This document shows positions 27,377 through 50,767 of a DNA stretch of 64,000 nucleotides, in pieces; the stretch's first letter is position 1, and every line of letters starts with the position of its first letter. This DNA comes from Acidobacteriota bacterium (GTDB lineage Bacteria; Bacteroidota; Ignavibacteria; UBA10030; UBA8401), in NCBI GenBank assembly GCA_050258555.1, contig JBLMZA010000159.1:1906-65905 (forward strand). The letters run 5' to 3'. A program made the position numbers and the translations under genes. The notes under the pieces were generated by a model. It saw only the letters and a program-made list of their open reading frames with translations, made no database searches and was not told the DNA's origin.

Positions 27377-27399
27377 GGGCGCAGGGCGCCGTTTCGCTC

Positions 27400-27428
27400 T
27401 TGCATTCCAAGGCGATTCTTGTTACTTT
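27400..27428 (+). promoter_or_regulatory. sigma70-type promoter of the TonB-receptor locus
   Basis: TTGCAT-N17-TACTTT with an extended-10 TG. Confidence 0.55.
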
Positions 27429-27496
27429 CCAATGATCATTCAACGCTGACCTTGGTTTATTTTCCATTCTCCATTTTTTTGGAAAGGATATCAATA

Positions 27497-28900: not shown

Positions 28901-28952
28901 CAGTCGCCCTCCGCACGACACTACGGTACGGCTTCAATGGTGTGCATGCGCC

Positions 28953-28982
28953 CGCGCCCTGGACCCCAAGGTCCCGGGCGCG
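28953..28982 (+). other. Intergenic GC-rich hairpin without U-tract
   Basis: CGCGCCCTGGACC-CCAA-GGTCCCGGGCGCG, 12 of 13 pairs. Confidence 0.55.
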
Positions 28983-29030
28983 AGTGCGATGTGTGGCATT
29001 CAGAGCATTTTTATGACAACAGGATGTAGG

Positions 29031-32000
29031 ATGAAACACCACTTTCTCTTGAAACCCCTCATGCGATCCCTCGTCGTGCTACTCTGCGGCGTGTCGCTCG
29101 CGTTTGCCCAGCGCGGCAAAATTTCCGGAACCGTGATCGACGGCGAATCGAAAGAGCCGCTGACCGGCGTCAACATCGTGCTGAAAGGCACGACGCAGGG
29201 CGGAGCGACGGACGTCGACGGAAAATACGCCATTCTCAATGTCACGCCCGGCACCTATACGCTTGTGGCGAGCATGGTGGGATACAACCAGGTGCAGATC
29301 ACGAACGTGCGCGTGAACATCGACCGCACGACGACGATCGACATCACCATGCAGTCATCGGCCGTGCAGCTCGGAGCGGTGGTGATCGAGGCCAAGCAGC
29401 CGCCGGTCACGAAGGACAAGACCGCCACGGCATCGACCGTCGAAGGACGCGATATCGAGAAGGCGCCGGTGGAAGGCCTGCGCGAAGTGATGGAGCTCAA
29501 TGCCGGCATGCAGAAGAATCCGAACGGCACGTTCAGCCTTCGCGGCTCGGGCAGCTACGACATCAACGTGATGGTCAACGGCGTCGAACAGATGACTTCC
29601 AGCACGAGCGTGCCGGGGTTCGGCGCGCTGGGCGACAAGGCGAACAACTCGTGGAAGTACGACTTCAATCCGCTCGGCGTTCAGCAGATGGAAATCATCT
29701 CGGGCGGATTCTCGGCCGAGTACGGCAACGCCCAGGCGGGCGTCGTGAAGGTCGTGACGCGCGAAGGCGGTCCGAAGCTTCAGGGACAGATCCGCTACGA
29801 ATTCCGTCCGCCCGGACAGTATCACTGGGGCGACTACATCTACAACACGAACTCCATCGAGTGGAAGAAGTGGGGAACGATCGAAGGATGGCGGAACAAT
29901 CCCGGCATGGATTCGACATCGATCGTCAACACATATCTGAACGATCCGAAGACCGGCAAGGTCATCGATTCGCTCAACGGCCATCCGATCACGGTCGAAG
30001 AGTGGCGGCAGCTCATGCTGGCGCGCTGGATACAGAATCACACGCCGGGAGAGGATAATCAGCTCGGCGTCTACGATTACCGGAAGAACATGTATCAGCG
30101 CCTGCTCTTCAGCGTCGGCGGTCCCCTGGGCGCCGATGCGAACCTGCTGCGCTTCTTCTTTGCGGGCGAGTACCGCTACGCGCCCACGCGCATCCCGACG
30201 GCGGAGCAGGTGCAGAAGTATCAGAACTATACGCTCACGACGATCTATCAGCCGACCGCCGTGCACAAGATCCGGCTTACGGGCATTTATCAGAGCTACC
30301 GGGGCGGCATTTATTCCGGCTCGGAAGACATCCGCTGGGCCGGATACAACGGCGACTACAAGTATTATCTCGTGACCGATTCGCCGCGCGATGAATACAC
30401 CACGACGCAGAGCCTGAACTGGACGTATACGCTCAGTCCGAAATCGTTCCTCGATGTGATGGCGACGCATCAGTTCGAGAAATACATTCTGCTCGAGCAG
30501 CCCGTGCCGCAGCGCGCGGCCAACTGGCGCAACAACGTGTACAACGACCAGTGGTACATCACCGCCGGTCCGTGGGATGAGGGCTACCGCACGATCTATT
30601 CGTTCACCACATTCAACCAGCAGGACCTTCGGACGCACCAGTACAATCTGACTGCCGACTTCACCAATCAGTTCACGGCCTCGCACGATGTGAAGATGGG
30701 CTTCCGCGCCACCTACTGGGACATGCACAACAGCGCCGTGTATTCGAGCTTCGCCTCGAACGCCTTCATCTCGCGCACGGGCTATGCGGAATACTACAAG
30801 GCCTATCCGCGCTACATCGCCGGCTATGTGCAGGACAAGATGGAATTCGAGGGCCTCGTGGCGAACGTCGGCGTCCGTGTGGACGCCTACAACATGAATT
30901 CGCCGATGCCTGTCGACCGGTTCGACCCGTTCTACATCGCCGTTGGATCCGAAGCGATCGGAAATCCCGAGACCACAACGCCCGAAACATGGGTGCGCGT
31001 GTCGCCTCGTCTCGGACTCTCGTTTCCGATCGGGGAGATGACGGCCTTCCGCCTGCAGTACGGTCACTTCTCGTCGATGCCGATCTTCAGCAATGCCTAT
31101 ACGCGCACGAACGAGCTGGGCTGGGCGGCCTTCGGCAATCCGAACCTCGCGCCAAAGCGCACGATCAATTACGAGATCGGCGTGCAGCATTCGTTCGGAG
31201 GCACGCACCGTCTGGACGTGGTGGCGTATTACAACGACCGCGTGAGCCAGATCGGCGGCATCAAGATTTATTCGCCGAGCGCCGGCATCCGCCGCAACAA
31301 GCTGTATTCGAGCTACGACAACAACCAGTTCGGCGCCTCGCGCGGCATCGAAGCGACGTTCGAGAAAGTGAGCCGGGGACGCTGGACGTACCGCATCACG
31401 TATTCGCTCTCGCGCACGACATACGGCAACTACGGACCGACGAAGCTCTACTCCGACGATCCGAACGATCCGCGCAACTTCCAGGATGCGTTCGCGCCGA
31501 CCGATTATCTTTCGTATGACGACCGCACGCACACGCTGCGCACGATGCTCACATACAACGTGGAAGCGAACGAAGGCATCGAGATCTTCGGCGTGCATCC
31601 GTTCGAGCGTCTCTCGGCCAGCCTCATCTACACGGCGCAGAGCGGCTCTCCCTACACGTACGTGCCGTCGTACGACGAACTCTACAAGGCGTATACGAAC
31701 GACCAGGTCACAAACAACCGCCGCTACCCGCTTGAGGCGAAGACCGATCTCAACATCACGAAGAATCTGAACCTGTTCGGATTCGAAGCGATTCTCGGCG
31801 TGCGCATCATGAATCTGTTCGACAACCAGTGGCTCACGCCGCTTGATTACAAGACGGATCAGATGCGCAACTGGGTCGAGTACGGCATCACGATGGACCG
31901 TCCGATCACGATCAATAATTTCGATGCGAACAAGAATCCGGTCGTGGATTATTCGCAGCAGATCTACAAACTCAATTTCTTCCGCGCATACCGCAACATG

Positions 32001-32039
32001 CCGCGGCAGGTCTTCTTCACGCTGGGATTCAACTTCTAA
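29031..32039 (+). CDS. TonB-dependent receptor with N-terminal carboxypeptidase-like regulatory domain
   Basis: GKISGTVID...GTYTLVASMVGY; plug LRG...GGFSAEYGNAQAGVV; C-terminal PRQVFFTLGFNF. Confidence 0.93.
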   Translation: MKHHFLLKPLMRSLVVLLCGVSLAFAQRGKISGTVIDGESKEPLTGVNIVLKGTTQGGATDVDGKYAILNVTPGTYTLVASMVGYNQVQITNVRVNIDRTTTIDITMQSSAVQLGAVVIEAKQPPVTKDKTATASTVEGRDIEKAPVEGLREVMELNAGMQKNPNGTFSLRGSGSYDINVMVNGVEQMTSSTSVPGFGALGDKANNSWKYDFNPLGVQQMEIISGGFSAEYGNAQAGVVKVVTREGGPKLQGQIRYEFRPPGQYHWGDYIYNTNSIEWKKWGTIEGWRNNPGMDSTSIVNTYLNDPKTGKVIDSLNGHPITVEEWRQLMLARWIQNHTPGEDNQLGVYDYRKNMYQRLLFSVGGPLGADANLLRFFFAGEYRYAPTRIPTAEQVQKYQNYTLTTIYQPTAVHKIRLTGIYQSYRGGIYSGSEDIRWAGYNGDYKYYLVTDSPRDEYTTTQSLNWTYTLSPKSFLDVMATHQFEKYILLEQPVPQRAANWRNNVYNDQWYITAGPWDEGYRTIYSFTTFNQQDLRTHQYNLTADFTNQFTASHDVKMGFRATYWDMHNSAVYSSFASNAFISRTGYAEYYKAYPRYIAGYVQDKMEFEGLVANVGVRVDAYNMNSPMPVDRFDPFYIAVGSEAIGNPETTTPETWVRVSPRLGLSFPIGEMTAFRLQYGHFSSMPIFSNAYTRTNELGWAAFGNPNLAPKRTINYEIGVQHSFGGTHRLDVVAYYNDRVSQIGGIKIYSPSAGIRRNKLYSSYDNNQFGASRGIEATFEKVSRGRWTYRITYSLSRTTYGNYGPTKLYSDDPNDPRNFQDAFAPTDYLSYDDRTHTLRTMLTYNVEANEGIEIFGVHPFERLSASLIYTAQSGSPYTYVPSYDELYKAYTNDQVTNNRRYPLEAKTDLNITKNLNLFGFEAILGVRIMNLFDNQWLTPLDYKTDQMRNWVEYGITMDRPITINNFDANKNPVVDYSQQIYKLNFFRAYRNMPRQVFFTLGFNF

Positions 32040-32052
32040 TATCATCATACAC

Positions 32053-34116
32053 ATGGCGACACGAAACGACAACATGGAACACATGCGGCTTCTGCGCAGG
32101 ATCGCCCTGCGTGCAGCGCTTGCGCTGACGGCGCTGATGGTCTGCGGCGAGATCGCACCGGCACAGGTCGACGGACCGCTCATCAGCCTGCGCCGCGGCA
32201 TGCTCTGGAATTCCTATTATTACGGAAAGGAGGCCGCGCCGTTTTCGAACTGGTCGCGCCTCAACTACGGCCTCGACTGGCCGGGATTCGATCCGGAATG
32301 GATCGGCGCCAATATCGGAGGCGCAAACAGCTACATGACCTCCGGCGGCATGTGGGTGGGCGCGAAGGACGACTCCGGGAAGATCATCGCGATCGAAGAC
32401 TGGGCGATGTATGCCGGAACGGTGACCGTTGAGAACTCGGCGAAGTACAAGGTGAAAAAGCACATGCGCCGATGGAAAAACGGAGAGAACTTCTGGAACC
32501 AGGCCGATCCGGCCGAAGCGCAGGACGTGATCGATACGGAATGGGAAATGAATCCGAGTTATGTGCCGACGTATGTGGGCGACCGGCAGCTTCCGCTGAA
32601 CGTGAAGCGCACCGTGCGCCAGAACGCCGGCTCGAAGGACGACGAGAACTACATCACGACCGAATACGTGCTGCGCAACGTGAGCGACACGCTTGCGATC
32701 AAAGAGATGTACCTGATGATCACGTACGCGCTCGGCGCCAACTCGCGCGGCTGGAACACGCTCTTTGCGAACTTCAACCAGGGACCGCGCAACAACCGCT
32801 TCGTCTACAATCCGAGCGAGAAAAGCATCGTCGGCTACGCCGAGGATTATCCCGAGACGCCGAGCGTGAACGAGAAGTACGATTATTATCCCGTCGGCGG
32901 TCCGACAGGCAAGGGCGAGTTTCTCGCTCCGGGCTATGTCGGCTTCCGGCTGCTTTACAGCTCTCCCGATTCGACCGGCACCGCGACGCGCGTCTCGAAC
33001 TACGCCTGGAGCGCCGTTCCCGATCAGCAGGATCTCTACGGTCCGTTCGGCTCGGCCAGCATGGGAACGGAAGCCCGGTATGAAGTGATCAAGGATCCGA
33101 TGAAGGCCACCGAAGCATTCAAATCGCCGACCGATACGCGCATGACACGCCGCCGCGTCTGGTCGATGATGACGCTCGGACCGTTCCGCCTGAAGAAGGG
33201 CGACTCGGTGCGCGTGGTGGTGGGAGAATACGTGGCCGGCGGTCCCTATGCCGTGGCGGTGAATCCGACTTCGACAGCCGGCGTCATCGGAACGGAGGCG
33301 ACGAAGGCCCTGACGGCCATCGGCAAGCGCATCAAGATCGCCGCCGACAACAAATTCCGGGTTCCTCGTCCGCCTGCATCGCCCGAGTTCACGCTGCAGC
33401 TCGGCGCCGATCCGAAGCAGGTGTCGAATATCCTGAAGTGGAAGACCGATGTCGAAGCGCTTCCCGATCCCGATTATACGGGCAGCGAGCGCTTCGATCT
33501 TGCCGGCTACCGCATCTACCGGTCGGGATATCTTCCGCTCGGACCGTGGATGCTCGTTGCCGAGATTAAAAAGGGAGACGGCCGCTATCTGACCGGAGGT
33601 CAGTACACGTATGTCGATACGTCCGTGGCGATCGGCACGTCGTACTATTATGCGATCACATCGTACGACTCGGCGCATGCCGTCTGGCCGGTGAATCCGG
33701 CGGCGTTTCCCGGAGGCGTGCCGTCCCAGGAATCGTCCATCTACGCATCGCTCTATGCGAAGAGCTCGCTCAATCAGAACCTCGTCGTGTCGCCGTTCAA
33801 GACGACCATCCCCGCGGCGCAGGATTATTCGAACATTCTCGTCGTGCCGAATCCGTTCGTGCTCCAGTCGGGTTCCGTGATGCCGAGCGACAAAAGCTAT
33901 ATCCAGTTCATCAATGTTCCGAGTCCCTGCACGATCCGCATCTATACGATGCGCGGCGATCTGGTCAAGACCATTCCTCACGACGACGGATCCGGCATTG
34001 CGCTGTGGAACCAGCAGACCGATTACGGCCAGTTCGTCGGAAGCGGCGTCTACATCTACCACATCGAGTCGCCGGGCGGCAAAACAAAAACGGGTAAACT
34101 CGCCATCGTGCGCTGA
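32053..34116 (+). CDS. Secreted protein of unknown function with Fn3-like domain and atypical C-terminal sorting-like domain
   Basis: Signal peptide; DLAGYRIYRS...YYYAITSYD Fn3-like segment; C-terminal VVPNPF...CTIRIYTMRGDLVK...GSGVYIYHI...GKLAIVR. Confidence 0.75.
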   Translation: MATRNDNMEHMRLLRRIALRAALALTALMVCGEIAPAQVDGPLISLRRGMLWNSYYYGKEAAPFSNWSRLNYGLDWPGFDPEWIGANIGGANSYMTSGGMWVGAKDDSGKIIAIEDWAMYAGTVTVENSAKYKVKKHMRRWKNGENFWNQADPAEAQDVIDTEWEMNPSYVPTYVGDRQLPLNVKRTVRQNAGSKDDENYITTEYVLRNVSDTLAIKEMYLMITYALGANSRGWNTLFANFNQGPRNNRFVYNPSEKSIVGYAEDYPETPSVNEKYDYYPVGGPTGKGEFLAPGYVGFRLLYSSPDSTGTATRVSNYAWSAVPDQQDLYGPFGSASMGTEARYEVIKDPMKATEAFKSPTDTRMTRRRVWSMMTLGPFRLKKGDSVRVVVGEYVAGGPYAVAVNPTSTAGVIGTEATKALTAIGKRIKIAADNKFRVPRPPASPEFTLQLGADPKQVSNILKWKTDVEALPDPDYTGSERFDLAGYRIYRSGYLPLGPWMLVAEIKKGDGRYLTGGQYTYVDTSVAIGTSYYYAITSYDSAHAVWPVNPAAFPGGVPSQESSIYASLYAKSSLNQNLVVSPFKTTIPAAQDYSNILVVPNPFVLQSGSVMPSDKSYIQFINVPSPCTIRIYTMRGDLVKTIPHDDGSGIALWNQQTDYGQFVGSGVYIYHIESPGGKTKTGKLAIVR

Positions 34117-34137
34117 GAGAGGCAACAATCGACCACT

Positions 34138-35085
34138 ATGAAAACTGAAAAATTCATTCTACTGCTGATCTGCCTGATGTGCTGCGCGAATGCATCATGG
34201 GGACAGAATAATTTCAAGAAGATCGGAACAGCGGGGTATGTGTTCCTGGAAATTCCCGTGACGGCCCGCGGTGCGGCCATGGGCGAAGCCACGCTCACGA
34301 CGCTGCAGGGCGCGCTGAGCGTCTTCGACAACCCCGCGGCAACGGGACTGAACACCGACCGCCATTCATTCGGCGCCTCGTTCGCGGACTGGTTTGCCGA
34401 GACGCAGCACAAGGCCGCCGCGTATTCCTATAACGGCGCCGATCTCGGCGTCTTCACCGTCTCGGCGGTGCAGCTCGACTACGGCACCATGCAGGGCACG
34501 ATCAGCCCGAGCGCCGACGCGACAGGTTCGTACATCATCACCGACGATTTCTCGGCGGACGGTCTTGCGCTCGGCGTGTCGTATGCGCGGCAGATGACGG
34601 ACAAATTTTCGTTCGGCGCGACGGTCAAGTATGTGCGCGAGAAGATTTCGGTTTACAAGTCGGACAACATGCTTTTCGATGCCGGCATCTACTACAGCAC
34701 AGGATATCATTCGCTCCGCATCGGCGGCGCGCTGAAAAATTTCGGCGTCGATGCGAAGTATCTGCAGGGCCTCTTCAAAATGCCGACGGAATTCCGGCTC
34801 GGGGCGTCGATGGATGCATTCGGCAGCGAGGCGAGCGATCATCGCCTGACCCTGGCGGTCGAAGCCACGCATCCGAGCGACAACGACGAACGGTTCAACG
34901 TCGGCGGCGAATACTGGTTCCAGAATTTCGTCGCCCTCAGGGGCGGATACAAATTCAATTACGACGAAGAGAAATGGACCGCCGGCGCCGGAGTCCGGTG
35001 GTCGGGACTCACGCTCGATGCGGCCTACGCCTCCTATGGACGGCTCGGCACGGTCGTCCGGTTTTCGCTCTCGGCGGGCATCTGA
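34138..35085 (+). CDS. PorV/PorQ family outer-membrane protein
   Basis: GTAGYVFLEIPVTARGAAMGEA, SVFDNPAA, YARQMTDKFSFG, ALRGGY, ends FSLSAGI. Confidence 0.88.
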   Translation: MKTEKFILLLICLMCCANASWGQNNFKKIGTAGYVFLEIPVTARGAAMGEATLTTLQGALSVFDNPAATGLNTDRHSFGASFADWFAETQHKAAAYSYNGADLGVFTVSAVQLDYGTMQGTISPSADATGSYIITDDFSADGLALGVSYARQMTDKFSFGATVKYVREKISVYKSDNMLFDAGIYYSTGYHSLRIGGALKNFGVDAKYLQGLFKMPTEFRLGASMDAFGSEASDHRLTLAVEATHPSDNDERFNVGGEYWFQNFVALRGGYKFNYDEEKWTAGAGVRWSGLTLDAAYASYGRLGTVVRFSLSAGI

Positions 35086-35117
35086 TGCCAATCACTCAAC
35101 TGATATCACTCTTACGT

Positions 35118-35978
35118 ATGAAAACTCGCGTTTTGATCTTGACACTCCTGTGCGCTGCAGCCGTGACGGCGGCATCGGCACAGGAACAGCAGAAAATGTT
35201 TTCACTGAAGACGCTCACGGCAACCGGACAGGCGCTGTTTGGCGTCAGTCCCCGCTCGACGTTCCAATCGGGCAGCACGGGCATCGGCGGGGGAGCCGAA
35301 GCTCGTCTCCATCTGACAGGACCGATATCGCTCAGCCTTGAAGGCGGCTATCAGGACTATACGATCAAGCAGAAGAGTCCGGTCACCAACTGGAACTGGG
35401 TTTACTGGCAGAAATATTACCGCAGCTACATCAACACCGACTGGCTGGGTTCCTATTCCTATTTCAACGGCACGCGCGTGAGGACTTCGACGCTCACCGA
35501 CGACCAGATCGTTTCGGGCACGCCGATCGTCCGCGAAGACAGCATCTATCAGGCCACGTTCAAGGCCGTGCAGACGATGAGCGTCATTCCGCTCGGCATC
35601 TCGGTCAATGCCGAAATTCCGGTCAACGCATGGCTCGTCCCGTTTGTGGGAGCCGGCGCGAGCGTCTATCTGTACGAGCGCACCATGTATCTTGACGAGC
35701 ACTGGACAAAGCGCGCCAGGCCCGATGCCGGCATCGACAGCGGCCGCGTCTACCCGTTTGAATATGATTTCCGGAATTTTGCGACGCCGATCAGGGGAGA
35801 GGTCTATGCCGTCTCGGCAAAAGCAGGAGCCGATCTGCTCGTCTCGCGTCTGATCGGGTTCCGTTTCACGGCGCAGTATCAGGGCATCATCGATGCCGCA
35901 GGCGGCGCCTCTGCCGCCAGGAATTTCCCGTTCCGCGGCACCTTTGCCGCCACACTGGGACTCGTCATACGCTACTGA
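35118..35978 (+). CDS. Outer-membrane beta-barrel protein with a long inserted loop (start may be 35085)
   Basis: Signal peptide, amphipathic strands (VPFVGAGASVY), C-terminal GLVIRY. Confidence 0.7.
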   Translation: MKTRVLILTLLCAAAVTAASAQEQQKMFSLKTLTATGQALFGVSPRSTFQSGSTGIGGGAEARLHLTGPISLSLEGGYQDYTIKQKSPVTNWNWVYWQKYYRSYINTDWLGSYSYFNGTRVRTSTLTDDQIVSGTPIVREDSIYQATFKAVQTMSVIPLGISVNAEIPVNAWLVPFVGAGASVYLYERTMYLDEHWTKRARPDAGIDSGRVYPFEYDFRNFATPIRGEVYAVSAKAGADLLVSRLIGFRFTAQYQGIIDAAGGASAARNFPFRGTFAATLGLVIRY

Positions 35979-36049
35979 GAGTTGTTATTCTGCGGGGCCA
36001 AGCGCGCAGCTTCGCCCTCGACACTGTGCACACATAAATTCTGATTGCC

Positions 36050-36682
36050 ATGAATAAACGATTGTTCATCATCCTTTTCCTGCTTTGTTCCTTCACCTCC
36101 GCGCATGCGCAGACCGCAGGCAGTTATTACGTCGCGGCGCGCGGCATGTATTCCGCGCCCATCGGTTCGCTTGGCGACTGGTTCAAGCCCGCCACAGGCG
36201 TGCAGATCGCCTTCGGCACGCGCAGCGAATCGGATCTCACATGGGAATTCAACGCCGAAATGATGACCTATTCGAAGCCGAATACGGGCAAATTGTATTA
36301 TCCCGATCTCGATCTGAAGCTCGAGCTGTTCGGCCTTGGCGCCCAGGTCGATTACGCGATCACCACTCAGTCCATGGTGACGCCCTACGTCACGGCAGGC
36401 GCGGCGTTCTACCGATGGCTGGGCACGCGCGGTCGGCATGCGCTCGACTCGGCGCAGACGCAGATCGTATGGGAATTGAAGCAGAACGACTGGAGCGCGG
36501 GATTCAATGCCGGTATCGGCGTCAATGTCGCCGTCACATCGGCGCTCTCAATCGACGCATCGGCACGCTATCACATCGTCAACGGCGAACTCTGGCCGGC
36601 GCTTGCTCTTCGGCTCGAGAATGTCAGCGGATTCCAGTCGCTTCGGACCTCCGTCGGCCTCAAATACGAATTCGAATTCTGA
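36050..36682 (+). CDS. Outer-membrane beta-barrel protein (OmpA-TM-like)
   Basis: Signal peptide, TPYVTAGAAFY, GFNAGIGV, C-terminal GLKYEFEF. Confidence 0.75.
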   Translation: MNKRLFIILFLLCSFTSAHAQTAGSYYVAARGMYSAPIGSLGDWFKPATGVQIAFGTRSESDLTWEFNAEMMTYSKPNTGKLYYPDLDLKLELFGLGAQVDYAITTQSMVTPYVTAGAAFYRWLGTRGRHALDSAQTQIVWELKQNDWSAGFNAGIGVNVAVTSALSIDASARYHIVNGELWPALALRLENVSGFQSLRTSVGLKYEFEF

Positions 36683-36743
36683 TCCGGCATCCGGACCTCG
36701 GCGCAGCAAGAGGCGCCGTCGGGCTCAGTTGGAGAAGATGCAT

Positions 36744-36780
36744 AACGGCTTCCTGAAAGAGAAGAAGGGAAGCCGTTTTT
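36744..36780 (+). terminator. Intrinsic terminator closing the TonB-receptor locus
   Basis: AACGGCTTCC-N14-GGAAGCCGTT-TTT. Confidence 0.7.
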
Positions 36781-36869
36781 CATGTACATTTTTTCTCTAT
36801 GAAGTCTCGCCCGTATTTCGTATTTTTTAAAAAGATTATCAAACATCATAGAACGGACTTTGATCATTC

Positions 36870-42446: not shown

Positions 42447-42860
42447 TTACTTTTTCTCTTTGGGGCTTTTCGATTCCTTCGTGTCCTTCATTTCCTTCAT
42501 GTCCTTGGTGTCCTTCTTCGTCTTCAGTCCCTCGAGGTAGGACGCCAGTTCCTTCAGATCGGTTTCGGAGCCGCTGAATTTCATTCCATGCTTCTTGCCG
42601 TGCAGGTCCGTTTCCTTCTTCAGATATTTTTCGATATCATCGGCCTTCATGTCAGCGCCCACGGCGGAGAGGTCGGGGGGACCGGCTTTCGTGACGGCGC
42701 CTTTTTTGGCGATGCCATCCGACTGGATGGAATGGCATTGGTTGCATTTCTTGTCAAGGAATACCTGCTTTCCCTTCGGCGTGTCTTTCGACGAAGAATC
42801 TTCCGCCCAGGCCGTGCCGATGACGAAAAGGCTGACGAGCAACGCAAGTGTGAGTTTCAT
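42447..42860 (-). CDS. Periplasmic monoheme cytochrome c with Lys-rich repetitive tail
   Basis: Signal peptide, CNQCH heme motif, GPPDL, HGKKHGMKF candidate distal ligand. Confidence 0.85.
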   Translation of the reverse strand: MKLTLALLVSLFVIGTAWAEDSSSKDTPKGKQVFLDKKCNQCHSIQSDGIAKKGAVTKAGPPDLSAVGADMKADDIEKYLKKETDLHGKKHGMKFSGSETDLKELASYLEGLKTKKDTKDMKEMKDTKESKSPKEKK

Positions 42861-43051
42861 GTGTCTTTCCTCCTTAGATTGTGTGAATGGTCTCTTCCGG
42901 TCCGTGACGCAATGGAACCCGGCGTTGATGGAGCCTGTGCGATCCAATGATAGTGGAATATACAATGACGGAGACTGACAAGCAAAGGAATAATTAAGAG
43001 AAAATTGTCCGACATGAACGATTCAGGCGGCCGCCGGGCGTCGGGGCGGAC

Positions 43052-43095
43052 TTGACTATAAAATATCGAAAGTTTAATATTTATCGAATTTATAG
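43052..43095 (+). promoter_or_regulatory. sigma70-type promoter overlapped by an imperfect inverted repeat (putative operator)
   Basis: TTGACT-N17-TAATAT (43052-43080); CTATAAAATATCGA...TCGAATTTATAG. Confidence 0.55.
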
Positions 43096-43107: not shown

Positions 43108-43167
43108 ATGGCATCCATACTCTCCTCCTCCCAGAAACAATTCATCGAAGAGATGGGCAATCTCTAA
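43108..43167 (+). pseudogene. Possible N-terminal remnant of a GbsR/MarR-type regulator (or a leader peptide): MASILSSSQKQFIEEMGNL*
   Basis: First ATG after the promoter; QFIEEMG resembles the first helix of GbsR-family regulators; stops after 19 codons. Confidence 0.3.
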
Positions 43168-43277: not shown

Positions 43278-44270
43278 ATGAAACGATATGCGCGCATTAC
43301 GGCAACGGGACGATACATACCCGAGAAGATCGTCACGAATGCCGACCTGGATGAAATGCTGGGAGAGAATGTCGGGGACTGGCTTGTCGAGAATGTCGGC
43401 ATTCAGGAACGGCATGTGATGGCCCCGGAACAGACCACATCGGACATGGTCGTGGCTGCGGCGCATCAGGCGCTTCAGCGCGCCGGACTGCTTCCCGAAG
43501 AGCTCGATCTGATCATCGTTGCCACGGACACGCCCGATTATATCAGTCCGGCCACAGCTTCTGCGGTGCAGGCCAAGCTCAGCGCGAAGAACGCTGGCAC
43601 GTTCGACATCAACTGCGCCTGCGCCGGATGGGTGACGGCGCTCGACATGGCCGCACGCTATATTGCCACAGACACGGTCTACAAGCACATTCTTGTGGCC
43701 GGCGGATACGGCATGACGAAGTTCATCGATTGGAAGGATAAATACACCTGCACGCTCTTTGCCGACGGCGCAGCATGCGCCATCGTGAGTCAGAGCGACA
43801 CGCCGGGACATCTGGCCGGAAAGCTGAGCGCCGAGGGATCCTATCATGACGCCATGGGAATCTATACCGGCGGCACATACCGGCCCGCGACGCCGCAAGC
43901 GGTAAAGAAGACAGGGAAGCCGCGCGTCGAATTCGTCCGCAAGCTTCCCGCGACATTCAACAGCGACAACTGGCCCGAACTGATCCGCGCGGTCGTGGCG
44001 AAGGCCGGCATCTCGGTGGATGATGTGGGGCTCTTCCTCTTCACGCAGCTCAATCTCCGCACGATCGAGTTCGTGATGGAGAACCTGAAGCAGCCGATGT
44101 CGAAGACGCACTGGATCATGGACAAGTGGGGATACATCGGATCGGCATGCATACCCGCGGCGCTCGACGACGTGATCGAAAACGGCCGCGATCCGAAGCC
44201 GGGCGAATATATCGTCTTCTGCGCCACTGGCGGCGGCATGGCAATGGCATGCTCATTATGGAAATGGTGA
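43278..44270 (+). CDS. FabH/KAS III-like protein with non-canonical catalytic residues
   Basis: FabH scaffold (GIQERH, ATDTPD, FDINCACAG, LFADGA, GGG) but FTQLN and GYIGSAC replace PHQAN and GNTSAAS. Confidence 0.88.
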   Translation: MKRYARITATGRYIPEKIVTNADLDEMLGENVGDWLVENVGIQERHVMAPEQTTSDMVVAAAHQALQRAGLLPEELDLIIVATDTPDYISPATASAVQAKLSAKNAGTFDINCACAGWVTALDMAARYIATDTVYKHILVAGGYGMTKFIDWKDKYTCTLFADGAACAIVSQSDTPGHLAGKLSAEGSYHDAMGIYTGGTYRPATPQAVKKTGKPRVEFVRKLPATFNSDNWPELIRAVVAKAGISVDDVGLFLFTQLNLRTIEFVMENLKQPMSKTHWIMDKWGYIGSACIPAALDDVIENGRDPKPGEYIVFCATGGGMAMACSLWKW

Positions 44271-44312
44271 CGGCACACGACTCTCTCTTTCTCTGGAAAG
44301 GACAATAACACA

Positions 44313-45593
44313 ATGACCACACGAAAACTCGGACGGGGCGTTGCACTCGTGGGAGCCGGCATGAGCCGGTTCGGGGCGTTTCCCGGCAAGAGCACGCGCG
44401 ATCTGCTTGCGGAAGCCTATCGCGACATGATACAGACGGTGGACCGCGGATTCGATCCGAATGCGGTTCAGGCGCTCTACATCGGCAATTTTTCAAGCGA
44501 GCTGTTTGAAGGGCAGGGACACACCGCGCCGATCATGGCCGACTGGCTGGGACTGTCGAATCGTCCCGCAACGCGCGTGGAGAATGCGTGCGCAAGCGGC
44601 GGCTCGGCGCTTCGCGAGGCGGTGCTGGCAATCGCCTCGGGCATCTACGATGTCGTGCTCGTGGGCGGCATCGAAAAGATGACGGATCTGCCGATCGAAC
44701 GTGTCACCGACGCGCTTGCCACCGCCGGAGACACGCTCTTCGAAATCCCGTCGGGATTCACATTCCCCGCATTTTATGCGACGATGGCGGCGGCCTATCT
44801 CGCGCGTTATGAAGCCGCGAAAGGGAAATCGGGCGCCGATGCGCTGCTGGCCGTGGGCATGAAGAATCATGCGAACGGCAGGCTCAATCCCAAGGCGCAT
44901 ATCGGCATGAGCATCTGCGACGTGATGGAAGGGAAGAAAGCCGCTGCGGTGAAGAAGGGCAAGCCTGTTCCCGAATGGAATACGGAGATGGAATTTCTGC
45001 TCGATGAGCGCGCCAATCCGATGATCGCATGGCCGCTACGTCTTTTCGACTGCTCCCCGGTATCGGATGGAGCGGCGAGTCTCCTGTTGGTGAGCGAGGA
45101 ACTGGCCTCGTCGTTTTCCGAGACGCCGCTGCACATCATCGGCACGGGACAAGCCAGCGACAGTCCGCTGCACAGCCGGCCCGATATCACGACGCTCCGC
45201 TCGGCGCGTCTTGCAGCGAATCAGGCATACGATCTTGCACAGGTGACGCCGGCCGATATCAGCGTGGCCGAAGTGCACGACTGCTTTACGATTGCCGAAG
45301 TGATCGCAACCGAAGACCTCGGATTCTTCGGGCCCGGCCAGGGTGGCGTTGCGGCGATCGAAGGCGTGACCGCGTTGCGCGGAGCGCGTCCTGTCAACAC
45401 ATCGGGAGGATTGAAATCGAAAGGCCATCCGGTCGGCGCTTCGGGCGTGGCGCAGGCGGTGGAGATGTGGAAGCAGCTCCGGGGGGAAGCCGGCATGCGC
45501 CAGGCTCCCGGCGACATCCGTCTCGGTCTCACGCATAACGTGGGCGGAACGGGACAGACAACCGTCGTGCATATTTTTGAAAGGAGAAAGTAA
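44313..45593 (+). CDS. Thiolase family protein (archaeal / SCP2-type, HDCF)
   Basis: ENACASG, GIEKMTD, DCSPVSDGAA, EVHDCFT, NTSGGLKSKGHPVGASG, HNVGG. Confidence 0.92.
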   Translation: MTTRKLGRGVALVGAGMSRFGAFPGKSTRDLLAEAYRDMIQTVDRGFDPNAVQALYIGNFSSELFEGQGHTAPIMADWLGLSNRPATRVENACASGGSALREAVLAIASGIYDVVLVGGIEKMTDLPIERVTDALATAGDTLFEIPSGFTFPAFYATMAAAYLARYEAAKGKSGADALLAVGMKNHANGRLNPKAHIGMSICDVMEGKKAAAVKKGKPVPEWNTEMEFLLDERANPMIAWPLRLFDCSPVSDGAASLLLVSEELASSFSETPLHIIGTGQASDSPLHSRPDITTLRSARLAANQAYDLAQVTPADISVAEVHDCFTIAEVIATEDLGFFGPGQGGVAAIEGVTALRGARPVNTSGGLKSKGHPVGASGVAQAVEMWKQLRGEAGMRQAPGDIRLGLTHNVGGTGQTTVVHIFERRK

Positions 45594-45594
45594 G

Positions 45595-46011
45595 ATGGCG
45601 GCATCGATGATCACGACAGAAACCACCATACAGGACCGTGCAGCGCAGAGGTTGACCGGAAGCCGTTCAGCCGACGGAAAAACGATCTTCGTTCCGGCGC
45701 GTCCAATCGATCCCGCCGATCCGCTGGCGGAACTCGAAACGGTTGAACTCAGCGGCAGGGGAACGCTTGTCTCGTTTTCCGTCGTCCCCGTTGCCTCTTC
45801 AGAGATGATCGCGGCCGGATACGGCAGGGACAATCCCCATGCGGTCGGCATCGTCCGGCTCGAAGAGGGGCCGTGCATCAGCGCGCAGATCATCGGCATC
45901 GACATGAAGCATCCGGACACGGTGGCGCCCGGATTGGCAATGAAGGCGGAATTCATCGAGCGCACCGCCGGCGCAACGAAAAAAATCGTTCTCGCATTCC
46001 GTCCCGCATAA
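45595..46011 (+). CDS. DUF35 / ChsH2-like OB-fold protein lacking the Zn-ribbon cysteines
   Basis: ELSGRGTLVSFSVV, PHAVGIVRLEEGP OB-fold; the knuckle positions read RSADG and IDPAD. SD AAGGAG upstream. Confidence 0.82.
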   Translation: MAASMITTETTIQDRAAQRLTGSRSADGKTIFVPARPIDPADPLAELETVELSGRGTLVSFSVVPVASSEMIAAGYGRDNPHAVGIVRLEEGPCISAQIIGIDMKHPDTVAPGLAMKAEFIERTAGATKKIVLAFRPA

Positions 46012-46032
46012 CATCGATCGGAAAGAAAAAAC

Positions 46033-48060
46033 ATGACCCGGATGATCCTGCTTTGTACCGCTTTCCTGCTTTTGCAATCCACCCTTCCTGCCGAATGGAA
46101 ACAGATCGACGGTCCGTATGGCGGACCTGTCAACGCAATGACGATGGTCGGCAGCGTCATTCTTGCGGGAACGAATGGGGCGGGAGTTTTCCGGTCTACA
46201 GATCTGGGCGCCTCATGGTCGCAAACCGACCTGAATAACGTTTCCGTACTTTCTTTGACCAGGCAGAGCGATCGTGTCTTGGCCGGTACGGACAAAGGAA
46301 TATTTGTATCGGGCGACGGCGGGATCCATTGGTCACCGATTACTCCTGAAGGTTCGCCGATGTATGCCGCGGCCATCGCGTGCGTCGGGACCCATCTTTA
46401 TGCCGGCCTATTCGGAGGAATGCTTCGCTCATCCGACGATGGCGCCACATGGAATCCGGTCGATGGCGTGCCGTCCTCGGTGTGGATCAACGCTATCACG
46501 TCACTGGGCGGGACGATCTTCGTCGGCACGAATGGAAGCGGCGTGTACCGGTCGACGGACAGCGGGAAGACGTGGACCAGCGTGCGGACCGGCCTGACAA
46601 ACCTCACGGTCGGTGCGATCGCCGCGGCTGGAAACACGATCCTTGCCGGAACGGGCCACGGCGTATTCCGTTCGACGGATAACGGGACGACATGGAAACC
46701 GACAGAGTTTCCGAATGAAGAAGTCCGCGCCGTGGCATTTTCCGGGACAAAAGTCTATGCGGCTTCTTCACGAAGCGTCTATCAATCTGCAGACGACGGC
46801 GCGACATGGCTGTCGATGAACTTCCCGAGTCAGTATAACCCCCACATCCAGGCGATCGCCGTCTACGGATCGAAAATCTTTACCGGCACGAACGTGGGAG
46901 TGATCATGACGTCCACCGGCGGCATCAGCTGGACGCAAGCCAACACCGGTCTGAACAATCTTCCCATCGGCAGTCTTGCCGTCGCCGGATCGGTTACCTA
47001 TGCCGGTTCCGATTATCAATCCTATTCCTCATCCGATCAGCGGAAGCACTGGGTTCCGATGGGGCTCACCGGGTCTGTCAGAGGATTCGTACCGATCGGT
47101 GATACGCTCTTTGCCGGGATATCGGGAGGCGGAGTGATGCGTCACCCGGACATCTGGATGTTCTGGGAACAGGCCATCAATGGCATGACCAACATCGATG
47201 TGTCGTGTCTTCTGTCGCATCGCGGCAGGCTGATTGCCGGCACAGCCGGAGGCATTTTCATTTCTTCCGATAAGGGAGCATCGTGGACAGCCTCCAATTC
47301 GGGACTTGCCAATGTCATGGTGAATGCCGTCGTCGTCAACGATACGGAGATGTATGCGGGAACCAATGGCGGCGTCTATCGATCGTCCGATGGCGGAACG
47401 ACGTGGGGCTCGGCAGGCACCGGCGTTGCCGGCCGGAAGATCAACTCGCTTGCGATTGCCGGACGCGATGTGTACGCCGGAACAGAGCATGGCGTCTATC
47501 ATTCGGCAGACCGGGGGAGCAGCTGGGAGCAGTCCGGAAACTCGGTGCTGACGATGCCGGTGCTCTGTCTTGTTGAAAGCGGATCGCTGATCTTTGCCGG
47601 AACACTGCGGAAGGGCGTCTATATGTCCGCCGACCACGGAACGACCTGGACGTCATGCGGAATGGCTGACATGACCATCAACTGCATGGCGTTCGACGGC
47701 AGCGATCTTCTTGCCGGCACACAAGGAAGAGGCGTGTGGTCCCGCTCTCTGTCTGAGATGGTCACGCATGCGGACGCTGTGGCCGCATCCGTACCCGATC
47801 GAATGCTGCTGTATCAGAATTATCCGAATCCATTCAATCCTCAGACGACCATCGCTTTTACCCTCGCCGATCGTACGCAGGTCTTGCTGCATATCGTGAA
47901 TGCGCTCGGCGAGGAAATCGCCACACTTGAGTCGGGAGATTTGTCGCGTGGGACCTACACGCGTGTATGGAATGCCGCCGGATTACCGAGCGGCGTGTAT
48001 TTCTGCCGTCTGCGTGCGGGCACTGCTTCGGTCACGCGAAAGCTGATGTTTCTTCAATGA
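46033..48060 (+). CDS. Secreted BNR/Asp-box beta-propeller protein with T9SS-type C-terminal domain
   Basis: Signal peptide; repeated AGTxxGVYRSxDxGxTW; C-terminal QNYPNPFNPQT...LPSGVYFCRL. Confidence 0.85.
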   Translation: MTRMILLCTAFLLLQSTLPAEWKQIDGPYGGPVNAMTMVGSVILAGTNGAGVFRSTDLGASWSQTDLNNVSVLSLTRQSDRVLAGTDKGIFVSGDGGIHWSPITPEGSPMYAAAIACVGTHLYAGLFGGMLRSSDDGATWNPVDGVPSSVWINAITSLGGTIFVGTNGSGVYRSTDSGKTWTSVRTGLTNLTVGAIAAAGNTILAGTGHGVFRSTDNGTTWKPTEFPNEEVRAVAFSGTKVYAASSRSVYQSADDGATWLSMNFPSQYNPHIQAIAVYGSKIFTGTNVGVIMTSTGGISWTQANTGLNNLPIGSLAVAGSVTYAGSDYQSYSSSDQRKHWVPMGLTGSVRGFVPIGDTLFAGISGGGVMRHPDIWMFWEQAINGMTNIDVSCLLSHRGRLIAGTAGGIFISSDKGASWTASNSGLANVMVNAVVVNDTEMYAGTNGGVYRSSDGGTTWGSAGTGVAGRKINSLAIAGRDVYAGTEHGVYHSADRGSSWEQSGNSVLTMPVLCLVESGSLIFAGTLRKGVYMSADHGTTWTSCGMADMTINCMAFDGSDLLAGTQGRGVWSRSLSEMVTHADAVAASVPDRMLLYQNYPNPFNPQTTIAFTLADRTQVLLHIVNALGEEIATLESGDLSRGTYTRVWNAAGLPSGVYFCRLRAGTASVTRKLMFLQ

Positions 48061-48090
48061 CCGCGTGCGCGATCGAAGCGTGTGCGCTGC

Positions 48091-48119
48091 TTGCTATTCT
48101 CTTCCAAATCCGGTACTAT
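48091..48119 (+). promoter_or_regulatory. sigma70-type promoter
   Basis: TTGCTA-N17-TACTAT, 35 nt before the ATG at 48155. Confidence 0.5.
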
Positions 48120-48154
48120 TCGTTGTCGACTCGAACATGACCTGGGAGGGGACC

Positions 48155-50695
48155 ATGACTTCGCGTGTCAGAACCATCCTTCTGGCGGCATGCCTCTGTG
48201 TTTCAACCGCCGCTCGCTCGTTCCAGCAATTCGATCCTGCCGTCTACCGGCAGTTTCTCACCACGCATCAGAACATGACGCCGGAACAGCTGCTCCGGTT
48301 CCGGCCGGCAGGCGCATTTTTGAAGACCGCGCCGACGCCATTCAGCACCGCGCTCTATTCCGATTCCATACAGGCAAAATATCCGCTCACGGCGTACGAA
48401 CGCTCGCTCATCGAAAGGAACGGGTTCGTGGTCACGGAGCGCATCGCTCCGCAGTCGTTCGGCGCCGCATTCGACGAGATCTGGCACAAGGATCTGCCCG
48501 TGTTCATCTCGACCGACGCCATTCTCCATGCGATACACATGTCGTACGATGCGATGCTGAAGAGCACCGAAGAACAGATTCTGATCGAACGGCTCGATAC
48601 GCTCCTGACACGTGTGCATCGGCGGCTTCCAACGCTCGCTTCGGCGTATGCCGGCACAAGCGGCATGACGCAGCCGCTGAGGGACGTCGATCTCTATTGC
48701 ACGATTCCGCTTCGGCTGCTGCGAGGAAACGCCGTGGCGACAGCCTTTCCGGAAACCAGCCCGGCCGCGGATGCGCTCATGAAGCTGATCGCTTCGGAAC
48801 AGCCGCACTCCTATGCGCTCTTTTCTTCCGTTCCCAGGACGATCGATTTCAGCCAGTTCAAGGTCAGGGGGCATTACACGCAGTCGCCGGCGCTAGGCCG
48901 CTACTTCCAATCGATGATCTGGCTCGGTCGGACGGAACTGTATCTCATCGCACCGGTCAACTCGATTCCGCCGCAGACGAATGCCGACATACAGCGTCAG
49001 GCAGTCGATGCCGTGCTTGTTTCAGAAGCGGTGAAGGGCGCATCGGCCGACAGCGTGCTTGAAGAGATCGACGGCATGATCCGCTTCTTCGCCGGAGAGT
49101 CGGACAACGTGACGCTTCGGAATCTGCGCACGCTCATCGATGCGGTGCATCTGTCGAATGCCGCCGACCTGCTCGACTCCGCGCGATGGGCGGCGTTTCA
49201 GGAGACGCTCAAGAAGCAGTCCTTCGCCGATCAGCGGATCCTCTCTCAGATCATCATTTCCGATCCGTCGGATCCCGATCAGATTCGTCCGGCCTCGGCG
49301 TTCCTTCTTCTGGGGCAGCGGTTCGTCATCGACTCGTATGTAACCGGCAGCGTGGTCTTCGACAAGATCCTCTTCGAGAACAGGAAGATTTGGCGGCCGC
49401 TTCCGTCGAATCTCGATGTGCTCTTCACGCTGGGCAACGACGCCGCGGCGCAGCTGCTGGGTCCGGAGCTTTCGAAATATCATTATGCGACGAACCTCGC
49501 GTCGCTCCGGTATCTCGTCGATGCGTATGAACAGGAATTCTGGGAAAGCACGCTCTACAACAACTGGCTTCATTCGATCCGCGCGCTGAGTCCGCCGGCC
49601 GACCGGAGCATGCTGCCGGCCTTCATGCGCACGGCGGCCTGGTGGCAGGAGAAGATGAATACCCAGCTCGCCTCATGGGCGCAGCTCAGGCATGACAATC
49701 TGCTCTATGCGAAGCAGTCGTACACGGGCGGAACGATCTGCTCGTTTCCCGAAGGGTATGTCGAACCCATTCCGGAATTCTATGCGCGCATCAGACAGTT
49801 CGCTTCCATCGCGGCTTCCCGTTTTAAAACCGGGTTCGCTGCGCGGCTCGGCTTCGACTCGTACTGGGAACATGTGAGGGATGTCGCCGACACGCTCGGC
49901 TCGATTGCGCAGAAGGAACTATCGAAGACGCCGCTCACCGACGACGAGAAAGGCTTTCTCCGCCGCATGCTCTTCGTGTATCAGATCTGCGGCGGAGGAT
50001 ATTCCGGGTGGTATTACCGCATGTTCTATACGGGAGCGGAAGGTTTCCGCAGGGACGACCGCATCGTGGCCGACATCCACACATGTCCCACCGATGAAGC
50101 AGGCAACATGGTGGGATGGGTGATGCATGCGGGAACGGGTCCGGTGAACATGGCCGTCGTCACAACGGAACTGCCGGACAATCGGCTCGTCTCGTTCATC
50201 GGTCCCGTGATGAGTTACTATGAGCATGTCAGCGTGAACTTCAAGCGCCTCAGCGATGAAGAGTGGAAGACCGCCTATGCGATGGCTCCGACATTCAGGC
50301 CCGACTTCGTCAATCTGTATCTGGCCGATCAGGAAGGGAAAGCGCGCGCGCAGGGGCCATCGCTTCTGACCGGCGTGGACGATCCGGGCGGGGAGGTGCT
50401 CGTGCCGGCTTCGATCGTCCTCGGCAGAAATTATCCCAATCCGTTCAACGGCACGACGATCATCACATTCACGATTCCGGACCGGTTCACGTCTGCCTAC
50501 ATCGATCTCTCCGTGTACGATGTGCAGGGAAGGAAGGTCAGGACGCTCGTGAACCGGACGATGCCTTCCGGCAAATTTGCCGTGAGCTGGGACGGCTCGA
50601 ACGAACACGGCATGCCGGTTTCAAGCGGCATATATTTCTACCATCTCTCGACGGGGGGCACGCGCCTGATCGGAAAGATGACCCTTGTCAGATAG
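48155..50695 (+). CDS. DUF3160 domain protein with T9SS/FlgD-Ig C-terminal domain
   Basis: PVFISTDAILHAIH, DFSQFKVRGHYT, YFQSMIWLGR, LASWAQLRHDNLLYAKQS, GYVEP, VADIHT, GPVMSYYE; NYPNPFN C-terminus. Confidence 0.85.
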   Translation: MTSRVRTILLAACLCVSTAARSFQQFDPAVYRQFLTTHQNMTPEQLLRFRPAGAFLKTAPTPFSTALYSDSIQAKYPLTAYERSLIERNGFVVTERIAPQSFGAAFDEIWHKDLPVFISTDAILHAIHMSYDAMLKSTEEQILIERLDTLLTRVHRRLPTLASAYAGTSGMTQPLRDVDLYCTIPLRLLRGNAVATAFPETSPAADALMKLIASEQPHSYALFSSVPRTIDFSQFKVRGHYTQSPALGRYFQSMIWLGRTELYLIAPVNSIPPQTNADIQRQAVDAVLVSEAVKGASADSVLEEIDGMIRFFAGESDNVTLRNLRTLIDAVHLSNAADLLDSARWAAFQETLKKQSFADQRILSQIIISDPSDPDQIRPASAFLLLGQRFVIDSYVTGSVVFDKILFENRKIWRPLPSNLDVLFTLGNDAAAQLLGPELSKYHYATNLASLRYLVDAYEQEFWESTLYNNWLHSIRALSPPADRSMLPAFMRTAAWWQEKMNTQLASWAQLRHDNLLYAKQSYTGGTICSFPEGYVEPIPEFYARIRQFASIAASRFKTGFAARLGFDSYWEHVRDVADTLGSIAQKELSKTPLTDDEKGFLRRMLFVYQICGGGYSGWYYRMFYTGAEGFRRDDRIVADIHTCPTDEAGNMVGWVMHAGTGPVNMAVVTTELPDNRLVSFIGPVMSYYEHVSVNFKRLSDEEWKTAYAMAPTFRPDFVNLYLADQEGKARAQGPSLLTGVDDPGGEVLVPASIVLGRNYPNPFNGTTIITFTIPDRFTSAYIDLSVYDVQGRKVRTLVNRTMPSGKFAVSWDGSNEHGMPVSSGIYFYHLSTGGTRLIGKMTLVR

Positions 50696-50703
50696 CGCGT
50701 CGG

Positions 50704-50736
50704 CGGCCCCGGGGGCACGCATCCGCGCCGGGGCCG
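50704..50736 (+). terminator. Hairpin after the DUF3160 gene
   Basis: CGGCCCCGG-N15-CCGGGGCCG; no clear U-tract. Confidence 0.4.
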
Positions 50737-50767
50737 ATTGCGGCGTGCTCTTTACACACTTCGTCTC

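Follow-up and report, generated by a model that had tools for sequence, protein, structure and literature searches.

What would an enzyme with the fold of KAS III, or FabH (beta-ketoacyl-ACP synthase III, EC 2.3.1.180; ACP, acyl carrier protein), do once two of its three catalytic residues have been replaced? The question is raised by a gene in a stretch of 64,000 nucleotides (hereafter, the window) from a genome deposited as Acidobacteriota bacterium and placed by GTDB in Bacteroidota; Ignavibacteria; UBA10030; UBA8401 (GenBank assembly GCA_050258555.1, contig JBLMZA010000159.1, forward strand, positions 1,906 to 65,905). In FabH, the catalytic His and Asn drive malonyl decarboxylation. The protein encoded here retains the Cys nucleophile of FabH, has Thr and Tyr at the His and Asn sites, and carries an additional acidic residue, Asp84, that recurs throughout its relatives (the D-C-T-Y clade). 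The present study indicates that it almost certainly catalyzes an acyl-coenzyme A (acyl-CoA) reaction other than that of FabH, and that its database name is wrong.

Active site and conservation of the D-C-T-Y clade

Numbered from the ATG at position 43278 of the window, the 330-aa protein contains the Pfam domains PF08545 (ACP_syn_III) and PF08541 (ACP_syn_III_C). Its best match among solved FabH proteins is the Aquifex enzyme 2ebd (phmmer, E 1e-53), and this alignment pairs FTQLNLR with HQANVRI and KWGYIGSA with KYGNTSAA. Alignment with E. coli FabH, whose sequence was checked at the landmarks W32, R36, F87, C112, H244, and N274, gave the correspondences C115 = C112, T256 = H244, and Y286 = N274. 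An earlier reading of the DNA made without database searches (the sequence-only reading) had placed Cys115, Thr256, and Tyr286 at the Cys-His-Asn sites of FabH and had equated the Thr256-Tyr286 spacing with that of H244-N274 in E. coli. Its coordinates and residues proved exact, and the spacing is identical, at 30 residues. The structural comparison with FabH that it had suggested backs the same register. AlphaFold2, run on an alignment of 32 sequences, gave a confident model (pLDDT 93.2, pTM 0.92) that superposes on FabH structures with TM scores of 0.90-0.92 and a root-mean-square deviation of ~2 Å at 28-34% identity, and the sequence register is therefore dependable. The protein also keeps the oxyanion-hole glycines (Gly318-320 loop) and the Gln257/Asn259 pantetheine motif. 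Furthermore, this copy has an Arg at position 261, which corresponds to E. coli Arg249, the ACP-docking position.

When species-representative genomes were scanned for the pattern, relatives turned up in at least 203 species-level genomes, and the best 80 of the 203, at 58-80% identity, were used for comparison. These are mostly Chloroflexota (Anaerolineae, Caldilineales, Ardenticatenaceae), joined by a few Ignavibacteria, one Actinomycetota, and one Myxococcales. In their alignment, Cys and Thr are invariant (80/80), and Tyr is present in every row but one. A deeper search, covering 1.8 billion representatives of 50%-identity clusters, recovered the same Cys-Thr-Tyr (C-T-Y) set in 17 remoter clusters at 36-58% identity, and 98 adjoining clusters have Cys-His-Asn (C-H-N). 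The C-T-Y pattern is thus far beyond chance. The clade is also present in archaea, namely Thermofilum adornatum, T. pendens, and Infirmifilum. Our literature searches found no paper on any characterized member.

Comparison of 38 clade sequences with 99 C-H-N FabHs identified twelve clade-specific positions (Table 1). Asp84, Cys115, Thr256, Tyr286, Gly288, Cys291, Asn228, and Trp232 are all present in the protein of the window; each is kept in at least 97% of the clade sequences, and the clade-specific ones among them occur in at most 8% of the FabHs. One helix face is altered relative to FabH by the changes V212P, A216N, and L220W (E. coli numbering). A conserved His that could compensate for the lost one was sought across the clade alignments, and none was found; His278 is kept among close relatives only. 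The idea that no other His or Asn serves in the site thus holds as far as His is concerned, whereas for Asn a clade-specific, invariant Asn228 exists.

Asp84 was present in 38/38 clade members and 0/99 C-H-N FabHs. When the clade was compared with bacterial HMG-CoA synthases (HMGS; HMG, 3-hydroxy-3-methylglutaryl) by hhalign (probability 90%), Asp84 fell opposite the Glu that serves HMGS as its catalytic general base (the E of its GTESxxDSSK motif), and Cys115 opposite the Cys of HMGS. Maximum-likelihood phylogeny unites the clade with KAS2, a further family of KAS III-like proteins, in one group (SH-aLRT 98) that lies within the FabH radiation and far from HMGS. Therefore, the acidic residue arose on the FabH scaffold, in convergence with HMGS. 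The equivalent residue of FabH, Thr81, takes part in an active-site network with Cys112 and Gly305/306 (PMC9040583, PMC8457745). Among the KAS III-like enzymes of altered triad, a known kind, the D-C-T-Y set and its acid of HMGS type make up an uncharacterized variant.

The FabH annotation

The protein scores 231 bits against the FabH model TIGR00747, under its cut-off of 292, and 252.3 bits against the looser model PRK09352, just over the cut-off of 249. It is because PRK09352 is just passed that homologues carry the name 'ketoacyl-ACP synthase III' at NCBI and JGI, and all named proteins among the top matches and the deeper clusters bear this label. Besides, the genome, which is 100% complete, has a canonical C-H-N FabH, scoring 400 bits and located by fabG and acpP on another contig (C167). 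An ACP gene was looked for in 86 related loci, and none was found. To our knowledge, Archaea, in which the clade also occurs, have no ACP-dependent pathway. In Sulfolobus, a ketothiolase/DUF35 pair is at the center of reconstituted chain chemistry that relies on CoA and dispenses with ACP (bioRxiv 10.1101/2024.07.05.601840).

Could the protein nevertheless be an ordinary FabH paralogue that condenses acyl-CoA with malonyl-ACP? Its fold, its Cys, Gln257/Asn259, and Arg261, as well as the narrow pass with PRK09352 (252 against 249), are those of a FabH. Fold, Cys, glycines, and Gln/Asn motif are indeed common to the clade and the solved FabH/KAS III enzymes (1hn9 from E. coli, 2ebd from Aquifex, and 4ryb from N. 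meningitidis). However, the clade differs from them in having Thr for His244, Tyr for Asn274, Asp for Thr81, and Ser for Phe87, and it lacks an ACP or fab gene context. The clade-wide loss of His244 and Asn274, the sub-cut-off score with TIGR00747, the canonical FabH elsewhere in the genome, the related loci devoid of an ACP gene, and the archaeal members make this alternative barely credible. The same evidence bears out the prediction of the sequence-only reading that the protein would be mis-annotated as FabH. It had further assigned a non-decarboxylating role. The comparative tests support the part of this claim that denies a working FabH; that the enzyme is non-decarboxylating we infer.

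Gene neighborhoods and the reduced operon

Two further genes follow on the same strand, a thiolase of the SCP2/archaeal type and a DUF35 protein with an oligonucleotide/oligosaccharide-binding (OB) fold (Table 1), and the three adjacent genes have the HMGS/ACAT/DUF35-type layout. Among solved structures, the thiolase best matches the acetoacetyl-CoA thiolase in 6esq, the archaeal thiolase/HMGS/DUF35 complex (E 1e-77), and it scores 421 bits with NCBIfam PRK06064. It is longer than the 6esq thiolase by ~35 residues, and the phmmer match is split around residues 168-233, which points to an insertion; the thiolases of relatives' clusters, at ~420 aa, are likewise longer. The DUF35 protein has its best match in 6esq_E, the DUF35 chain, and the alignment with relatives shows that all four zinc-ribbon Cys residues are lost. 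Among the relatives (in loci L007-L054), this Cys4 ribbon is intact in most Chloroflexota copies and partly lost in some; in both Ignavibacteria-type copies it is wholly replaced by Ser/Asp.

The likeness to 6esq extends to an acid and a Cys at aligned catalytic positions and to the same gene order, and 6esq provides the closest solved relative of the thiolase. The differences are that the first subunit here is of FabH descent, with Asp-Cys-Thr-Tyr where 6esq has Glu-Cys-His-Asn, and that the DUF35 protein has no zinc ribbon. Moreover, the adjacency of the KAS-like and thiolase genes in the window arose through deletion of a ligase gene, as described below. Searches of the complete genome for HMG-CoA reductase (PF00368) and HMGS found neither. 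Thus, the trio does not feed mevalonate synthesis, and a FabH-derived substitute for HMGS in the mevalonate pathway is ruled out.

What the relatives keep beside the KAS-like gene is a ligase. In 72/80 loci, the gene directly downstream encodes an acyl-CoA synthetase, here termed AMP2, whose best structural matches are fatty-acyl- and feruloyl-CoA synthetases. A thiolase gene is found in just 22/80 loci, always after the ligase, and ~58/80 have no thiolase or DUF35 gene within 6 kb. Other recurrent neighbors are a FabG-like short-chain dehydrogenase/reductase (SDR), alpha/beta hydrolases with a Ser nucleophile, a second ligase, KAS2, the thiolase-DUF35 pair, a MaoC dehydratase, a crotonase, Liv-type ATP-binding cassette (ABC) transporters, and large regulators. 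The hydrolases are not polyhydroxyalkanoate synthases, as the nucleophile elbow has Ser rather than Cys. The smallest module found, FabG-like SDR, KAS-like protein, and ligase, is that of an Ardenticatenaceae locus (L072), and the identical three-gene order recurs in five other loci. The KAS-like gene of Thermofilum adornatum (CP006646, 1720911-1739927; L105) is embedded in a Liv-type ABC transporter operon, where it separates the permease from the binding-protein genes, and beside it lie genes for a thiolase, an SDR, an acyl-CoA ligase, and two alpha/beta hydrolases; such hydrolase, SDR, and ABC genes also surround a Caldisericia-type member. The transporters and the regulator were searched for a clue to the substrate, and they gave generic NCBIfam matches only. 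From these neighborhoods, the clade is not an obligate partner of thiolase and DUF35 and is part of what appears to be an accessory system of organic-acid uptake and CoA-level processing, with organic acids as the presumed substrates.

The sister family KAS2 (NCBIfam PRK06840, '3-oxoacyl-ACP synthase') occurs in the same clusters, in 18/80 loci (L007:1415-2455 and 17 others). It keeps the Cys and has a Glu at position 84. Unlike in the D-C-T-Y clade, the His site is occupied by Leu or His and the Asn site by His, so that its four catalytic positions read Glu-Cys-(Leu/His)-His, and it is likely that this family is also misnamed. An obligate heterodimer of the two is unlikely, given these 18/80 loci and the absence of KAS2 from the genome of the window.

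How the trio came about is seen from G003, a sister genome in the same genus that is syntenic on both sides of the locus and whose KAS-like protein is 80% identical. There, a promoter precedes a 13-gene operon that encodes, in order, a MarR-like regulator, a sodium:solute symporter, an unknown protein, an outer-membrane channel-like protein, a hydrolase, KAS2, an SDR, a ligase, a hydrolase, the KAS-like protein, AMP2, the thiolase, and DUF35. The same nine-gene core is found in a genome from another genus of the family (G009). The intact marR-like gene of the sister encodes 162 aa (L104:11635-12123), and the alignment with the window stops after ~20 codons; the surviving genes are therefore without the presumed repressor of the operon. 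At the second site, the match to the sister locus L007 is lost at 44272 and picks up again at 44286, in the last ~27 nt of AMP2. Two putative deletions, as read from this comparison, have thus cut the operon to the KAS-like, thiolase, and DUF35 genes under the original promoter. Missing are 10 of the 13 sister genes, including the regulator and the near-universal ligase, and no orthologues of the lost genes were found elsewhere in the complete genome.

Three further observations concern the surroundings. A small cytochrome c gene (42447-42965, minus strand) lies divergently upstream of the promoter and has the same place in the sister (L104:11042-11509). The window also holds two insertions relative to the sister genome, at 27370-36869 (a TonB receptor/PorV locus) and at 46012-50753. 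The latter separates the DUF35 gene from conserved downstream genes and encodes two proteins with type IX secretion tails, one BNR/sortilin-like (46033-48060) and one with DUF3160 (48065-50695).

Are the three survivors no more than nonfunctional remains of an accessory operon in decay, still intact because the deletions are recent? The extent of the loss would fit this view, as would the patchy distribution of the gene, found in 3/24 other genomes of the host family, which also fits an accessory, horizontally moving cluster. In addition, DUF35 alone among the three has evolved faster here, its branch exceeding that of the sister copy. Against this, all three frames are intact, with dN/dS values relative to the sister of 0.14 (KAS-like), 0.08 (thiolase), and 0.21 (DUF35). 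Measured against five outgroups, the branches leading to the window are shorter than those leading to the sister, which has the whole operon, both for the KAS-like protein (0.09-0.11 against 0.13-0.14) and for the thiolase (0.09-0.11 against 0.12-0.14). The ligase deletion is in-frame-clean and has left a spacer of 42 nt in front of the thiolase, and the promoter is kept. The KAS-like and thiolase genes are still under constraint, and we consider the relic view improbable. Since the survivors are intact and constrained, either the trio is useful alone or the deletions are recent.

Table 1. Positions in the window of the KAS-like gene, its neighbors, and the residues that set the clade apart from E. 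coli FabH
Feature	Coordinates	Strand	Remarks
Promoter-like TTGACT-17 nt-TAATAT	43052..43080	+	consensus scan; aligned upstream of the marR-like gene of G003
MarR-like regulator stump, 19 codons and stop	43108..43167	+	left edge of a ~9.7 kb deletion
KAS III (FabH)-fold protein, Asp-Cys-Thr-Tyr clade	43278..44270	+	330 aa; Pfam, AlphaFold2, and clade comparison
Asp84, codon GAC	43527..43529	+	clade-specific acid; E. coli FabH Thr81, position of the catalytic Glu of HMG-CoA synthase
Cys115, codon TGC	43620..43622	+	nucleophile, kept; E. coli FabH Cys112
Thr256, codon ACG	44043..44045	+	clade-specific; replaces catalytic His244 of E. coli FabH (alignments)
Tyr286, codon TAC	44133..44135	+	clade-specific; replaces catalytic Asn274 of E. 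coli FabH (alignments)
Ser90			clade-specific; E. coli FabH Phe87
Tyr144			clade-specific; E. coli FabH Asp140
Gly194			clade-specific; E. coli FabH Thr190
Pro224			clade-specific; E. coli FabH Val212
Asn228			clade-specific; E. coli FabH Ala216
Trp232			clade-specific; E. coli FabH Leu220
Met281			clade-specific; E. coli FabH Leu269
Gly288			clade-specific; E. coli FabH Ser276
Cys291			clade-specific; E. coli FabH Ser279
42-nt spacer, AMP2 deletion scar	44271..44312	+	comparison with sister locus L007
SCP2/archaeal-type thiolase	44313..45593	+	426 aa; CAS (Cys93), HDCF (322-325), and GHP (371-373) intact
DUF35 OB-fold protein	45595..46011	+	~138 aa from the ATG at 45595; Pfam OB_ChsH2_C

Proposed chemistry and its alternatives

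The sequence-only reading had left the choice between a condensing enzyme and an acyltransferase. It had overlooked Asp84, which favors the former over a plain acyltransferase. We propose, tentatively and with slightly less than an even chance of being right, that the protein is a CoA-dependent, non-decarboxylating enzyme that forms or cleaves C-C bonds with an Asp/Cys pair. Its substrates would be thioesters of CoA rather than of ACP, and malonyl decarboxylation in the manner of FabH would have been lost together with His and Asn. Acyl-CoA would first acylate Cys115, an acyl-Cys that the oxyanion-hole glycines and the Gln257/Asn259 motif would permit. Asp84 could then act as the base that takes the alpha-proton from the Cys-bound acyl group, and the hydroxyls of Thr256 and Tyr286, standing in for His and Asn, could donate hydrogen bonds to the enolate or carbonyl. 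The outcome would be a decarboxylation-free C-C bond formation of the Claisen or aldol type or, equally, in reverse, the cleavage of a 3-oxoacyl-CoA. The ketoreductase, CoA ligases, thiolase, and hydratases that are constant neighbors match 3-oxoacyl-CoA-type chemistry. With the operon cut to three genes, the thiolase, of the acetoacetyl-CoA type, would be the sole close source or sink of 3-oxoacyl-CoA in this genome. The roles of Asp84, Thr256, and Tyr286, the type of reaction, the substrate, and any physical complex are thus predictions.

Several points weigh against this proposal. We know of no condensing enzyme with Thr and Tyr in place of His and Asn, and Asp is one carbon shorter than the Glu of HMGS. 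The placement of Asp84 beside Cys115 is predicted from alignments and from the FabH literature. Furthermore, the clusters already hold a true thiolase, next to which a second thiolase-like activity looks redundant. In the window itself, where the usual ligase and most of the operon are gone, the normal supply of substrate may be lacking.

A precedent for part of the mechanism comes from OleA and pyrone-forming KAS III-like enzymes, in which a carboxylate deprotonates the Cys-bound acyl group in a non-decarboxylative, head-to-head condensation. His and Asn are retained in OleA, where the Glu base is supplied by the other subunit and from a different position. The clusters of relatives also resemble the OleA context in having a protein of the AMP-ligase family, an alpha/beta hydrolase, and an SDR. 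However, an OleABCD/beta-lactone cluster is ruled out for the KAS2-SDR-ligase-hydrolase block of relatives, given that its ligases have their matches among acyl-CoA synthetases, its SDR is of the FabG kind, and the residues of OleA are missing.

Alternatively, the protein could be an acyltransferase of KAS III fold that passes the acyl group of Cys115 to a hydroxyl, amine, or carbon acceptor, with Asp84 as the base for the acceptor. Retention of the Cys and the oxyanion-hole glycines with loss of His and Asn would suit this role, as would the alpha/beta hydrolases and transporters of relatives' clusters, which fit ester chemistry. Acyltransferases of KAS III type are already established (PMC9573744), and the CerJ, ChlB3/ChlB6, and DpsC types resemble the clade in pairing the KAS III fold with an atypical triad and a function other than that of FabH. 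CerJ, which the sequence-only reading had cited as an analogue with an altered triad, is nevertheless a poor one, since both CerJ and ChlB3 retain the His (Cys-His-Asp, PMC9573744), and it activates the Cys. A His is also kept in the Ser-His-His type, and all of these belong to antibiotic clusters, whereas the clade has no conserved His and no biosynthetic cluster nearby. Besides, the FabG-like ketoreductase and the CoA-ligase partners point to 3-oxoacyl-CoA chemistry rather than acyl transfer. On balance, we regard an acyltransferase as unlikely.

The gene layout, too, would suit acyl transfer. A protein with a KAS III C-domain, a thiolase, and DUF35 make up both the Friedel-Crafts C-acetyltransferases PhlACB/SmaATase (PMC6392133, PMC12960953) and the orphan bacterial 'HMGS-ACAT-DUF35' loci, of which genome mining with the same Pfam domains found ~1,000, all uncharacterized (PMC12960953). 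However, in the PhlACB/SmaATase systems, the thiolase-like catalytic subunit (PhlC/MucB) has lost HDxF, and the PhlA-like subunit (PhlA/MucA), of HMGS lineage, has lost the Cys. Here, both HDCF and the Cys are kept, and polyketide synthase, nonribosomal peptide synthetase, and glycosyl genes are absent nearby. The two motifs, present together, rule out a Friedel-Crafts acylase of the PhlACB type.

The same systems suggest that the protein might be a non-catalytic scaffold, like PhlA or PqsB, that organizes the thiolase/DUF35 pair. It does hold the HMGS/PhlA position in an operon of KAS-like protein, thiolase, and DUF35. Catalysis in PhlACB is by the thiolase-like subunit only (PMC6392133), and bacterial HMGS-like subunits without the E-C-H-N tetrad have been reported to be inactive (PMC12960953). 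In contrast to the known scaffold subunits, which lack the Cys, the clade keeps Cys115, Asp84, Thr256, Tyr286, and the glycine loop invariant down to ~35-45% identity. A scaffold would moreover have no thiolase/DUF35 pair to organize within 6 kb in ~58/80 loci. Accordingly, a scaffold role is very improbable.

Returning to the Asp/Cys condensing enzyme, the D-C-T-Y clade as a whole could possibly, although we hold this with still less confidence, represent a new mechanistic class on the FabH scaffold. Such a class would have converged on decarboxylation-free C-C chemistry of the HMGS/thiolase kind, using a carboxylate as base and a Thr/Tyr hydroxyl pair for His/Asn, with thioesters of CoA as substrates, and would serve organic-acid use or CoA-based chain extension in Bacteria and Archaea. 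In the present genome, the trio would perhaps be a third kind of condensing-enzyme/thiolase/DUF35 machine.

If the clade is without FabH chemistry, its labels distort reconstructions of lipid metabolism in Chloroflexota, Ignavibacteria, and Archaea that lack ACP. The co-varying Asp84, Thr256, and Tyr286 provide a precise hypothesis for how a decarboxylating condensing enzyme may be made decarboxylation-free, which is of relevance to malonyl-CoA-independent building of carbon chains of the reverse beta-oxidation type. Finally, the natural reduction from 13 genes to three offers a minimal system for asking whether the KAS-like protein, thiolase, and DUF35 cooperate.

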